From Euglena gracilis (lineage: Eukaryota), in contig CP154954.1 of assembly GCA_039621445.1 (NCBI GenBank), positions 17,576,589 to 17,640,588 on the forward strand: a stretch of DNA of 64,000 nt, read 5' to 3'. Below, one piece after another: positions 22,501-25,500 of the stretch (within the stretch, counting starts at the first letter, position 1; each line of letters begins with the position of its first letter). A program made the position numbers and the translations under genes. The notes under the pieces were generated by a model. That model had not been told where the DNA came from, did no database searches, and saw only the letters and a program-made list of their open reading frames with translations.

Positions 22501-25500
22501 AGCTGTAATAACTCAAATGCAAAAAAAAAACAACAACAAATTAACGAACACCAGATTTGCACCCAAAATGGAAAACATAAAAAATATGCAAAAAAATGTG
22601 AATGCTCTCAAAGCAAATAAAAATGGCAGGAGATAATAATTGAAAATAATGTGCAACGATAATTCTCTCTCTCTCTCTCTCTCTCTCTATTTACAAAAAG
22701 GTAACCACCTGCAAAGAGGGACCAAACAACGAACAAAAAAAATTGAAACCCATGACGTCCCAGCCATACAATTTTTTACCGACCCCCCGGGGGGGGGAGG
22801 GGGGTCACTCCACTTTTTGAAAAACCAGTCAGTCACTTTTTTTGGGAAGCCAGTCAGTCACTACCCCCCCCCCCGGGGGGTCGGCCACTCAAAAAACGGC
22901 CACTTTCCAGTCACTTTAGGCCTTTTTAGGCCAAAAAATTTTTCCCAGCGCCTTTGGCGCCGGGGTCACTCAAGCCACTTTTGCCCACCCCTGGCCGACC
23001 CCCCCGGGGGGGGGGGTCCGGGCCCAAAACCAGTCAGTGACTCTCAAAAAACCAGTCACCCACCCCCCGGGGGGGGGGGGTGGGACAGTGCTTAAAAAAT
23101 TGTCTGGTCCCAGCACATTCAATGAAAAATCCATAGGAAAAAAAATGGCCGAAAAATGGCCATATTTTAGCAGAAACGAGTCGACTTCGGAAAAAAAAGT
23201 GATTTCTGGATTCCCTAAAACGTCAAAAAGCGTGTTTCTGGACTTTTTTGATCTTTCCCGTTCAAGCCACAATCCTAAGGGGCTGAGGCCTGAGGGCGGA
23301 CCTTGGAGGGCGGTCCTCAAGGATAAAAAACTTCCCGTCTTATGGACCGACCTGCCAGAAGCAGAATTTCCCCACCCCCCCTTCCACAGGGGGCGGTCCC
23401 TGCCGGCTTGAGCGACGCCCTTGTGGTGACAATCTCAGGGGTTCAGCTAAGAGTTTGGGCCTTCAGTGATCAATTAAAAATAACAACTTCACTGTCATAC
23501 GCTTGTGAAACCCTGGAAAAATAACAAAAAAAACAACAACCAGCCAATGCATCCATTTTCTTCCCCCCCCCCAAGCCCAGACGGTCCAGATGGGGGCGGG
23601 CGTTCATTGGGCATGGGGGATTGCGCATTGTGTGTACAAGGGACACGGTGACAATCTGGACGTCCGGACACCCCCTGTTCATCGGGCAAGGGCGTTCATT
23701 GGACATGGGGGAGGGGGGGACCTGTTTTCTCCTTCGAAACGGTCCTCGTCCTCCAGGAGGGCGTCCACCAGCCCCATCGACTTCGCCTTGGCCGGCTTCA
23801 TGTTCTTCCCCGGCAGGATGTAGGTCAGCGCGTTCTGCAGCCCGATCCAGGGCTGTGCAGGAAGGCCTGGTAGGGGGGAATCGACCTCCCACCGGGGGGG
23901 GGGGGTTCACCCCCACCCACCACCACACTTCGCACGGAAAAATTCTTTCAGCGCCGAAGGAAAATTTTGCCCAAAAAATCTGCACCCCCGGAAATACAAG
24001 ATGGCCTGGGTTGGACCCGACCACCCTCCACCATCCACCCACAATCTCAAAGACGGGGTTGCGTCATATTGCCAGGGTTTTGGGGTTTTATTTTGCAATG
24101 AATTTTATTTTGCAATAAATCACAAATCGACCATTAGACGTCCATTCTGACCATTTTTTTTTGAAACATTGAGTTGCCTTTTTTGCTAAAATCTTCATTA
24201 CAACTGACAAAAATACAGCACACAACAACTCCCGTCCAGCCCTGGCCCGATCAGGCGCGGCGTCCGGACCGTTCCGCCGAGCCCAGGGACCACGCCCAGC
24301 ATGGTCTCGGGCAGGCCGAGGTTGTGCTTGGCCGAAGCGGCCACCACGCGGTAATCGCAGGCAAGGGCAATTTCCAGCCCTCCACCCAAAGCATCTCCCT
24401 GTGGAGAGGCGGTCGCAGGCAGCACAGGGCCGGACAGGAAAGCGTGGGAAGAACCTCCCAAGGCTGTGCATTGTTCAAAACAGCTATCCTTCCTCTAATC
24501 CTTAAGAGTGGTTGATGGTGAATCTCATCCATAATTTCACTTACTCACCCCCCCCCCCGGAACTACTGGCGCGGGGTACTTTTCCCGGGCCCAAACCAGG
24601 GTTTTTTTTTTAAGACCGGGGGGGGGGAGGGGGGTCGGCACACCCACCCTCTGGGGTGGTGCCCCCCCGGGGGAGGGGGGGGGTCCCGGGGGACCATAGC
24701 TGGCGTTTTTTTTGTTTTTTTAAAAAAAACGTTTTTTTTGTTTTTTATTAAAAAAAACAGGCAAAAAAAACGGCAAAAAAAACAAAGGGGAAAATGATGG
24801 TCCAAATTTTGCCTTTGATCGTAAGGGTGAACCAATCTTAGCTCAAATGACTTGAAAACCAATACTTTTGGAGGTCTTCAACAAGAATGGTCAAAATAGG
24901 GCATTTTTCTGCCATTTTGGGATGTTTCAACTTGAAAAATCCCAAATTTGGTGTCTTTCTCTGCCTGAGGATGGGCAAAAAAAAGCCAAAATTAAAGGCA
25001 AATTTTTTTTTGCCCTGGACCCTCAATGGCGTTTTTTTTTGTTTTTTTTTTAAAAAAAACATGTTTTTTTATATAAAAAACGTGTTTTTTTTGACTTCGT
25101 TTTAAACGAAGTGCCAGCTATGCGGGGGGACCCACCCACTTTTGCCCGAAAATGGCCAAAAATGCTAAAAAGCACCTTTTAAAAAATTTTCGGCGCCTTT
25201 GGCGCCGAAAAAGATATACCCACCAGCCCCTACCCCCACCCCCCCCTGGGGGAGGGAGGGGGGTCCAAGGGACCCACCCACCCTCCCCCCCTGGGGGAGG
25301 GGGTCCAAGACTTAAAAACCCCCTGGCCCAAACCCACTCACACACAACCCCCCCCCCGGGGGGGGGTTTCTGCCCACCCAATATCCAGCCAAAGTCGGCC
25401 GAAAACCTTGAAAAAACAATTACAGAGCGGCCTTCTGATGGGTCAAAATCTGCCCCATTTCACACCTCACCCCTGGAGGGATGAAGGGCAGGGGTCCAGC

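Follow-up and report, generated by a model that had tools for sequence, protein, structure and literature searches.

How is a 405-nucleotide (nt) stretch removed from the message of a protein-coding gene when it interrupts a conserved motif and none of its possible boundaries has conventional splice sites, and where did it come from? The question arises on the minus strand of the window, by which we mean the whole 64-kb stretch of DNA that was analysed. Our best explanation, which we hold to be very probable, is that a MITE with CAGGG...CCCTG ends inserted into a nuclear gene of a Euglena-like organism and gave rise to a euglenid-type nonconventional (NC) intron. NC introns form the majority of introns in Euglena, and 71.8% of the introns in E. 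agilis (PMC12501133). In the published work consulted their origin and the machinery that removes them are described as open, and a MITE origin is still termed a hypothesis.

The host gene (1342..33463, minus strand) was identified by tblastn with the homologue P0004, by peptide mapping and by Pfam as encoding an enoyl-CoA hydratase / 3-hydroxyacyl-CoA dehydrogenase multifunctional protein of fatty-acid oxidation. The part in the window corresponds to residues 1-667 of a 775-aa relative and is divided by 20 introns, 16 of them GT-AG and 4 non-GT-AG. Its closest homologues are euglenid transcript-derived proteins. P0004, whose accession prefix is ascribed to Euglena longa in a preprint, is 98% identical across exon 5 (HSPs 78-100% identical by tblastn), and the homologue P0008 is named Anisonema acinus. 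All four homologues retrieved continue uninterrupted across the insert site. Two ENA gene models on long contigs, P0007 and P0009, are also uninterrupted there, which is a lead, and only that, to absence of the intron in relatives. An Rfam scan gave no match at the gathering score and no marker RNA.

The insert separates exon 5 (24248..24398, minus strand), which encodes part of the crotonase fold (Pfam ECH_1, 3.6e-10; PDB 1wdk_A, 6.8e-14) and is preceded by a GT-AG intron, from exon 6 (23722..23842, minus strand), which is followed by one. These exon labels, taken from the original prediction, are correct in the window if numbering begins at the start codon, which maps to 33463. The end of exon 5 and the start of exon 6 coincide at residue 177 of chain 4b3h_A, and the interruption was found where it had been placed, at PRLIG|LQNAL of a FadB/trifunctional-enzyme-like gene. 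The predicted 397-nt element, with CAGGGCTG/CAGCCCTG ends between perfect copies of GATCGGGC, is present at 23848..24244 (minus strand); it is MITE-like, with an AT-rich middle and a C/G-run subterminal region. Its 5' arm CAGGGCTG (24237..24244) and 3' arm CAGCCCTG (23848..23855), both given on the minus strand, form eight perfect complementary bases, nine if the adjacent C/G is included, and are 81% complementary over 16 nt. The upstream (24245..24252) and downstream (23840..23847) copies of the direct repeat, on the same strand, have a start-to-start spacing of 405, and the repeat does not extend past 8 nt in either copy.

Three further claims about the reading frame held. The insert had been said to contain an in-frame stop, and read-through does meet stops in all three frames (6-7 stops). 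The nearest GT-AG solution had been said to add 12 residues, and the in-frame pair indeed removes 369 nt and leaves 36 nt, or 12 codons. Removal of 405 nt, expected to give a perfect join, leaves the frame open over 244 codons and seven exons with PRLIGLQNAL contiguous.

Exactly 405 nt are removed from RNA at this insert. The RNA joint 23839->24245 skips precisely that length, with eight ambiguous letters, and was found in 70 reads (42 + 28) with 58 start places in RNA run X21 and in 15 reads with 11 starts in RNA run X24. It was also carried by a contig of depth 1560 in run X15, the RNA origin of which is guessed and which may contain DNA. Run X24 is stranded and its first mates lie only on the plus strand; this fits minus-strand RNA if the first mate reads the opposite strand, as it does in most stranded libraries. 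Read depth was approximately 0.1 in the intron bin versus 20-34 in the flanking exons (30-34 in exon 5). The cDNA join that had been predicted, with 405 nt gone and a single GATCGGGC kept, matches both RNA reads and contigs. The GT-AG extension product, which had been named as the result that would tell against the prediction, was not seen among the 15 joints listed, beyond which there were 241 more, and no back-joint of a circular product was found among those same 15.

When all nine possible registers of the 405-nt intron were enumerated, none had GT/GC-AG ends. One register, 23843..24247 on the minus strand, is an exact match to N3-CAG...CTG-N5|purine: GGC-CAG opens the intron, CTG-GATCG closes it, and G is the first base of the exon that follows. 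The published Euglena code is 5'-N3CDG...CH'GN5-6|R (PMC12501133). In this register the upstream GATCGGGC copy contributes 5 exonic and 3 intronic nt, the downstream copy supplies the 5-nt intronic spacer and 3 exonic nt, and the two arms hold CAG at intron +4 to +6 and CTG at -8 to -6. CCAGG at +3..+7 and CCTG at -9..-6 also match the E. gracilis consensus (PMC11170887). Because the code fits exactly and the insert is removed from RNA, this is a known kind of intron: it is a euglenid-type NC intron, of a well-described class that was absent from the original prediction. In silico, the MFE and centroid folds both contained a terminal 9-bp helix, and the whole intron gave a folding z of -2.5. 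In a 10+U7+10 pairing test the ends scored -10.1 kcal/mol, versus 0 to -3.1 in 15 GT-AG introns of the same gene.

The likeness to the NC introns of E. gracilis and E. agilis described in PMC12501133, PMC11170887 and PMC3935182 covers the lack of GT/GC-AG, the positions of CAG and CTG, the 3- and 5-nt spacers, the purine that opens the next exon, the pairing ends and a boundary that can slide within direct repeats. It extends to a gene shared with conventional introns and to the euglenid relatives of the host. We found no essential difference; the direct repeat here stands at the maximum that the geometry allows (8/8). The full code was fitted by one of the four non-GT-AG introns of the host gene, and the direct repeat is 3-5 nt in the other three versus 8 here. 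A 734-nt intron placed by homology (14238..14971, minus strand) shares the 3/5 geometry in decayed form: its flanking 8-mers are identical at 5/8, its inverted repeat at 9/12, and it keeps the 3' CTG-N5|G while CAT replaces the 5' CAG. For the remaining two (~10082->6999 and ~6979->4969) there was no GT-AG register, and no fit to the code was obtained.

The interpretation of the insert as a MITE gained support from other parts of the window, where elements of the same family or type carry 8-bp target-site duplications. At the insert itself an 8/8 duplication abuts an 8-9-nt perfect inverted repeat, as in a MITE. Five further CAGGG-ended elements were found in the 64 kb, with 8-bp target-site duplications that are exact or 7/8; four of the five lie inside introns of the host gene, and three of those introns are ordinary GT-AG. 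Two of the five have termini in common with the 397-nt element (approximately 45 nt at the left and 17 nt at the right). One is 622 nt long (31365..31986, no strand assigned), has a 16-nt perfect terminal inverted repeat and a perfect 8-bp duplication, ATCAGGGG, and sits in GT-AG intron 2 of the host gene; the other, of 292 nt (59652..59943, no strand assigned), has CAGGGCTG termini and flanking 8-mers identical at 7/8. The terminal 16-mer of this family matched eight times versus 0.43 expected. In the 64 kb it marks three complete elements, the interiors of which do not align, and 1-2 solo ends. No full-length close copy of the 397-nt element was found in the 64 kb; it is the termini and approximately 35-45 subterminal nt that align, so family membership rests on the element ends. 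A blastn search of the element against the window gave, beyond the termini, only short or low-complexity matches. A CAGGG-ended element of another family (729 nt, 24597..25325, no strand assigned) has a perfect 8-bp duplication, GCCCAAAC, and lies in the adjacent GT-AG intron 4; copies or fragments related to it occur at 2305-2565 and ~37022.

These associations were examined by counting. There are 10 N8-CAG...CTG-N8 pairs in the window, some of them tandem or low-complexity, whereas 30 shuffles averaged 0.8 and never exceeded 3. In six of the 94 CAGGG-headed inverted-repeat pairs the two flanking 8-mers agree at 7 or all 8 positions; control flanks displaced by 8, 16 and 24 nt gave 0, 0 and 1. 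The duplication length is fixed at 8, with four perfect and two near-perfect elements. Several candidates were set aside: the N8-CAG...CTG-N8 matches at 5227-5670 and at 52.4-54.3 kb proved to be simple or tandem repeats instead of duplications, the pair 15070-16830 is spurious in that it contains an exon and is without a duplication, and the element at 7149-7567 has its true ends further out, its flanks being themselves inverted. We infer a transposon origin for the 397-nt copy, and the window lends support to the MITE origin hypothesised for NC introns in published work. That the element is young is plausible, the perfect 8/8 repeat being its one basis; one terminal 16-mer is already two positions off the family consensus.

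The parent of the 397-nt element would have been hAT-like. Like hAT MITEs, the element has an 8-bp target-site duplication, short terminal inverted repeats and no coding capacity, and the first five bases of its inverted repeats presumably fit the hAT terminal consensus. Unlike a hAT system, the window offered neither a hAT transposase nor an autonomous partner with matching termini in the ORFs scanned. A Pfam scan of 30 of the 40 ORFs that reach 170 aa detected no transposase domain, and a scan confined to the window says little about the genome. The literature searched held no paper joining Euglena, hAT, target site duplication and intron, and the term 'hAT' is absent from PMC12501133 and PMC11282704. 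It is unlikely that the parent superfamily was instead Merlin (or P). In E. gracilis the documented DNA transposon is Merlin, represented there by two families, each of which produces 8-bp duplications (PMC8101967). Terminal repeats that start with GG, together with an 8-9-bp duplication, are the Merlin criterion, and all Merlin terminal repeats are reported to begin that way (PMC8101967), whereas here the duplication abuts CAGGG. Shifting the boundary to GG destroys the 8-bp repeat of the 397-nt element, and the 30 ORFs scanned gave no transposase of any kind.

How the element would act as an intron can be put as a sequence of predicted steps. A small CAGGG...CCCTG-ended MITE, a non-autonomous DNA transposon, would insert in an exon and duplicate 8 bp; its inverted ends would pair in the pre-mRNA and bring both junctions together; and the NC-intron machinery would cut at two points, 3 nt before the CAG at the 5' end and 5 nt beyond the CTG at the 3' end. 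Because of where these cuts fall, the element plus 8 nt, that is, one copy of the duplication, would be removed, and the pre-insertion frame PRLIG-LQNAL would be restored exactly. The 3 + 5 nt of spacer appear to be equivalent to the 8-bp target-site duplication. It is possible, and we offer it tentatively, that the Euglena rule (3 nt before CAG; 5, sometimes 6, after CTG) mirrors the 8-bp, sometimes 9-bp, duplication of CAG...CTG hAT-like MITEs, with the machinery measuring from the inverted-repeat stem and so removing the element and one duplication copy. A review already draws inverted repeats and duplication-like repeats at those positions (PMC11282704). If the proposal is true, nearly any exonic insertion of such an element would be born spliceable, the one requirement being a purine as the sixth base of the duplicated 8-mer. 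The window would then catch the process in one exonic copy still at 8/8, a second that has decayed to 5/8, and intronic copies of the same type that are unspliced by necessity.

A comparable route to introns is known from introners and other MITE-derived spliceosomal introns of Micromonas, Aureococcus and dinoflagellates (PMC11282704), in which a short non-autonomous DNA transposon, carrying inverted ends and flanked by a target-site duplication, likewise becomes an intron when it lands in an exon. Those elements supply or co-opt GT/GC-AG and use the spliceosome, and their duplications are 3-8 nt depending on the family (PMC11282704). The 405-nt intron has no splice-site dinucleotides, and its removal would be measured from the inverted-repeat stem. 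We consider it improbable that its removal is the work of a modified spliceosome of the kind put forward for Fritillaria, Amoebophrya and possibly diplonemids, one that accepts non-canonical ends, and not of a separate machinery. Such a reading draws on a diplonemid study that argues for an adaptable spliceosome (PMC12621601) and on the 16 GT-AG introns of the same gene. It is opposed by the lack of any GT/GC-AG register, by a 5' end without a spliceosomal donor, and by published work in which NC introns are removed later than conventional introns and leave as full-length circles, not lariats (PMC6221363, PMC11282704).

The nearest single precedent is gapC intron 4 of E. agilis strain ACOI 323, an NC intron that also has 8-nt direct repeats at its junctions; these are longer than in older introns and were taken as a mark of recent gain (PMC4770533). 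Recency was shown there by absence from other strains, in contrast to the present locus, where it is read from repeat identity alone. For the 8-nt repeats of that intron Milanowski et al. 2016 proposed double-strand-break repair (PMC4770533), which would leave filler DNA with microhomology-derived direct repeats; the inverted ends would here have evolved or been selected afterwards. For our insert we regard this origin as very improbable. The lack of a close full-length copy of the element in the window speaks in its favour, but it predicts neither a fixed 8-bp repeat abutting CAGGG...CCCTG at five further non-exonic sites nor termini of 16 to 45 nt common to three elements. While the authors of the gapC study favoured break repair, the nearby elements of the same type with 8-bp duplications favour transposition here.

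That the spliced RNA comes from an uninserted allele or haplotype, the insert-bearing allele giving no functional mRNA, is very unlikely. In its favour, exact excision and an uninserted site would leave the same sequence, the RNA runs carry two alleles at the nearby exon positions 21834 (56/87 and 52/94 reads) and 21913 (56/80 and 56/85 reads), and the existence of divergent haplotypes follows from contig 3 of DNA run X1, which departs from the window at 23 letters over 839 nt; but the 405-nt joint was in 0 contigs of X1 (one of 14 DNA runs, and contigs can drop rare variants), contig 5 of that run crosses the element/exon-5 boundary with 0 differences at a depth of 75.9, the deepest of the eight single-copy pieces listed (others 25-66), a depth at which an empty allele is hard to accommodate, and knock-in work has shown the splicing code that the insert fits to be enough for intron removal (PMC12501133).

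As an NC intron of probable MITE origin, the locus is a compact test case: one gene holds a transposon-like intron that is removed from RNA and bears an intact 8-bp duplication, together with a decayed intron of matching geometry and nearby non-coding sibling elements with intact duplications. Should the pattern prove genome-wide, it would explain the source of the 3-nt/5-nt spacer rule and name a transposon family in which to search for an enzyme possibly co-opted for RNA-level excision. There is also a consequence for annotation, as predictors that allow only GT-AG introns break such genes.

One other joint in the RNA, 19868->19984 (115 nt, with one extra letter), had the appearance of a non-canonical event and was rejected as such; it is the GT-AG intron 19868-19981, and right beside it the RNA sources show a difference, AAA/AAG, that is synonymous.

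The join that the original prediction expected in cDNA is present in RNA. Reads covering window positions 19800-28500 were taken from the RNA runs X21 and X24, from X15, a run guessed to be RNA, and from the DNA run X1. The RNA joint connects 23839 with 24245 and omits 405 nt, eight letters fitting either side. It was found in X21 in 42 and 28 reads (70 reads, 58 start places), in X24 in 15 reads (11 start places) and in X15, which may also hold DNA, in a contig of depth 1560; none of the X1 contigs contained it. X24 is stranded, its first mates lying on the plus strand only; this orientation is consistent with minus-strand RNA if the library follows the usual convention that first mates are antisense to the transcript. 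Read depth was approximately 0.1 within the element compared to 20 to 34 in the flanking exons. X15 also has a depth-5 contig that extends out of the element into exon 5 (24248-24398); either precursor RNA or DNA contamination could account for it. In X1, a contig crosses the boundary between element and exon 5 with no differences and at a depth of 75.9, the highest among the eight single-copy X1 pieces listed (the others, 25 to 66); therefore the insert is present in the DNA, and an insert-free allele has little room. At two exon positions, 21834 and 21913, a second letter was found in 56/87 and 52/94 and in 56/80 and 56/85 X21 RNA reads, respectively, approximately 55 to 70%, which means that two or more alleles or strains are expressed. 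The X1 DNA contig covering these positions shows the second letter alone, and a neighbouring X1 contig differs from the window by 23 letters in 839 nt.

The predicted anatomy of the insert was also borne out. Read on the minus strand, the order is CGC CTG ATC GGG C, then a 397-nt element (23848-24244) beginning CAGGGCTG and ending CAGCCCTG, then GATCGGGC TGC AG. The two direct-repeat copies of GATCGGGC, at 24252-24245 and 23847-23840, are 405 nt apart, and the repeat does not extend past 8 nt on either side. Complementarity between the two ends of the element covers 8 bases, or 9 including the adjacent C/G, and amounts to 81% across 16 nt. Translated through, the insert has 6 to 7 stops in every frame, and the closest in-frame GT-AG pair leaves 36 nt, the 12 extra residues that had been anticipated. 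When the RNA-supported exons are joined by coordinates, with 405 nt removed, the frame stays open for 244 codons and PRLIGLQNAL is unbroken, as predicted.

Five other joints within 19800-28500 are GT-AG on the minus strand; one at first appeared non-canonical owing to a synonymous difference beside the junction. The target intron can be placed in nine equivalent registers, none of which combines a GT or GC start with an AG end. One register (23843-24247) starts GGC-CAG and ends CTG-GATCG, the next exon (exon 6, 23722-23842) beginning with G, and matches exactly the published Euglena code 5'-N3CDG...CH'GN5-6/R. According to Nomura et al. (PMC12501133), this code rests on 649,158 junctions of E. 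agilis and was validated in E. gracilis through knock-in experiments, in which the 3-nt spacer was strict, a 5-nt spacer and a purine were preferred and pairing after CAG was required. The intron also has CCAGG at +3 to +7 and CCTG at -9 to -6, the E. gracilis consensus of Gao et al. at those positions (PMC11170887). In silico, the terminal helix is present in both the minimum-free-energy and the centroid fold, and the 10+U7+10 test of Gao et al. gave -10.1 kcal/mol for this intron versus 0 to -3.1 for 15 of the host gene's GT-AG introns. We conclude that the insert is a genuine intron of the known nonconventional class, expressed and removed with precision.

A MITE origin of this class is treated as a hypothesis in three sources: PMC3935182, the Discussion of PMC12501133, and a review (PMC11282704), which also draws inverted repeats at +4 to +6 and -8 to -6 together with duplication-like repeats. 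If an element ending CAG...CTG inserted into an exon with an 8-bp duplication, cutting 3 nt ahead of CAG and 5 nt beyond CTG would excise the element together with 8 nt exactly, leaving the exon as it was before insertion. Since such cuts remove the element and one copy of the duplication, the published 3+5 spacer rule would be what an 8-bp duplication predicts. We infer that the two are equivalent, in which case a 9-bp duplication would correspond to the tolerated 3+6 variant. What the analysis adds is this tie between duplication and spacer rule, together with local support for an origin of the class in CAGGG-ended MITEs with 8-bp duplications.

That support comes from elements of the same type elsewhere in the window, which strengthen the MITE reading of the original prediction. 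The window contains 10 N8-CAG...CTG-N8 pairs versus 0.8 expected (30 shuffles, maximum 3), several of them simple repeats. Of the inverted-repeat pairs headed by CAGGG, 94 in number (arms matching at 9/12 or better, 40 to 3000 nt apart), the flanking 8-mers are identical in four (2305-2565, the target, 24597-25325 and 31365-31986) and agree at 7/8 in two (7840-8151 and 59652-59943); control flanks shifted by 8, 16 and 24 nt gave 0, 0 and 1. Four of the five non-target elements sit within introns of the host gene: 24597-25325 in intron 4 and 31365-31986 in intron 2 (RNA-verified or GT-AG), 2305-2565 in GT-AG intron 20 and 7840-8151 in intron C. The target, 31365-31986 and 59652-59943 share end sequences, approximately 45 nt long on one side and approximately 17 nt on the other, their interiors giving no alignment, and the consensus of their terminal 16-mers is matched at 8 places in the window versus 0.43 expected. 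A solo terminus of this family, CAGGGCCGGACAGGAA (24425-24440, plus strand, two mismatches to consensus), lies 27 nt upstream of the 3' splice site of exon 5; no partner end was found for it. No transposase domain was detected in the 30 scanned of the window's 40 long ORFs (170 aa or more). A separate CAGGGGGAGGGTCC-ended inverted pair at 7149-7567 matches at 23/24; its flanks are mutually reverse-complementary, which places the real ends of the element outside this interval.

The terminal pentamer of the element appears to fit the hAT consensus and, with the fixed 8-bp duplication, points to a parent of hAT-like type. For E. gracilis, Merlin elements with 8-bp duplications have been documented, but their termini are reported always to begin GG, which the ends here do not match (PMC8101967). 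Our literature search found no work joining Euglena, hAT, target site duplication and intron, and the texts consulted on nonconventional introns yielded neither a superfamily assignment nor non-exonic sibling copies.

The host gene runs on the minus strand from 33463 to below 1342, covers residues 1-667 of a 775-aa relative (P0004) and has 20 introns in the window. A GT-AG register exists for 16, of which five are RNA-verified and one more partly so through a loose end, the remainder resting on homology; that at approximately 15562-15067, read by hand, implies E versus A in the relative. GT-AG intron 9 holds a 19-nt unit repeated 10.3 times followed by a GC-rich array of 5/8/25-nt periodicity (17852-18181). 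The four without a GT-AG register are the target and, from homology to the relative, introns B (14971-14238, 5-nt repeat), C (approximately 6999-10082, 3-nt repeat) and D (approximately 4969-6979, 5-nt repeat), all on the minus strand. Intron B ends CTG-N5 before G, the geometry of the target; its ends match at 9/12, with CAT instead of CAG as the 5' triplet, and its core-flanking 8-mers are decayed, being identical at 5/8, all three mismatches falling in the intronic part. For C and D, no fit to the code was found with the homology-derived boundaries.

The original prediction had called the insertion young. The perfect 8/8 repeat covers eight intronic positions left free by the code, which argues for a gain later than that of introns B-D, as in the gapC precedent of Milanowski et al. 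2016, where eight-nucleotide repeats occur in a recently gained intron and break repair was suggested (PMC4770533). Against a very young age, one terminal 16-mer is 2 positions off the family consensus, and the perfect inverted repeat spans 8 to 9 nt versus 12 to 17 in several siblings.

The flanking frames encode a crotonase fold of a FadB/trifunctional-enzyme-alpha-like protein (Pfam ECH_1, 3.6e-10), the top solved relatives being fatty-acid-oxidation alpha subunits (for example 1wdk_A, 6.8e-14). The end of exon 5 and the start of exon 6 both map to residue 177 of chain 4b3h_A, which means that an insertion is lacking here in solved homologues. P0004, the best match (EukProt, transcript-derived), is 98% identical over exon 5 and 78 to 100% per HSP over 17 mapped pieces; its accession prefix is attributed to Euglena longa in a preprint. 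Another homologue, P0008, is named Anisonema acinus. In all four fetched homologues PRLIG or PKLIG is followed directly by LQNAL-like residues. Together these matches point to a nuclear genome of Euglena-like type. The ENA gene models P0007 and P0009 (391-kb and 3.99-Mb contigs; 88% and 80% identity over exon 5) read uninterrupted through PKLIG/IQN, only a lead towards absence of the intron in relatives; P0007 derails approximately 10 residues further, at the next intron of the host gene.

Approximately 52430-54330 is occupied by long tandem arrays whose units are 10 nt (GGCGATGCTG-like) or 18 nt (with GACAAGATG inside), and the overlapping ORFs of 179 to 342 aa had no Pfam match. Parts of two GT-AG introns, 22710-23291 and 24456-25328, are of extremely high copy in X1 (summed contig depths of 154,585-550,376 and 92,314-412,192, single-copy pieces being at approximately 50-75) and consist of repeats rich in C/G-runs and A/T-runs.
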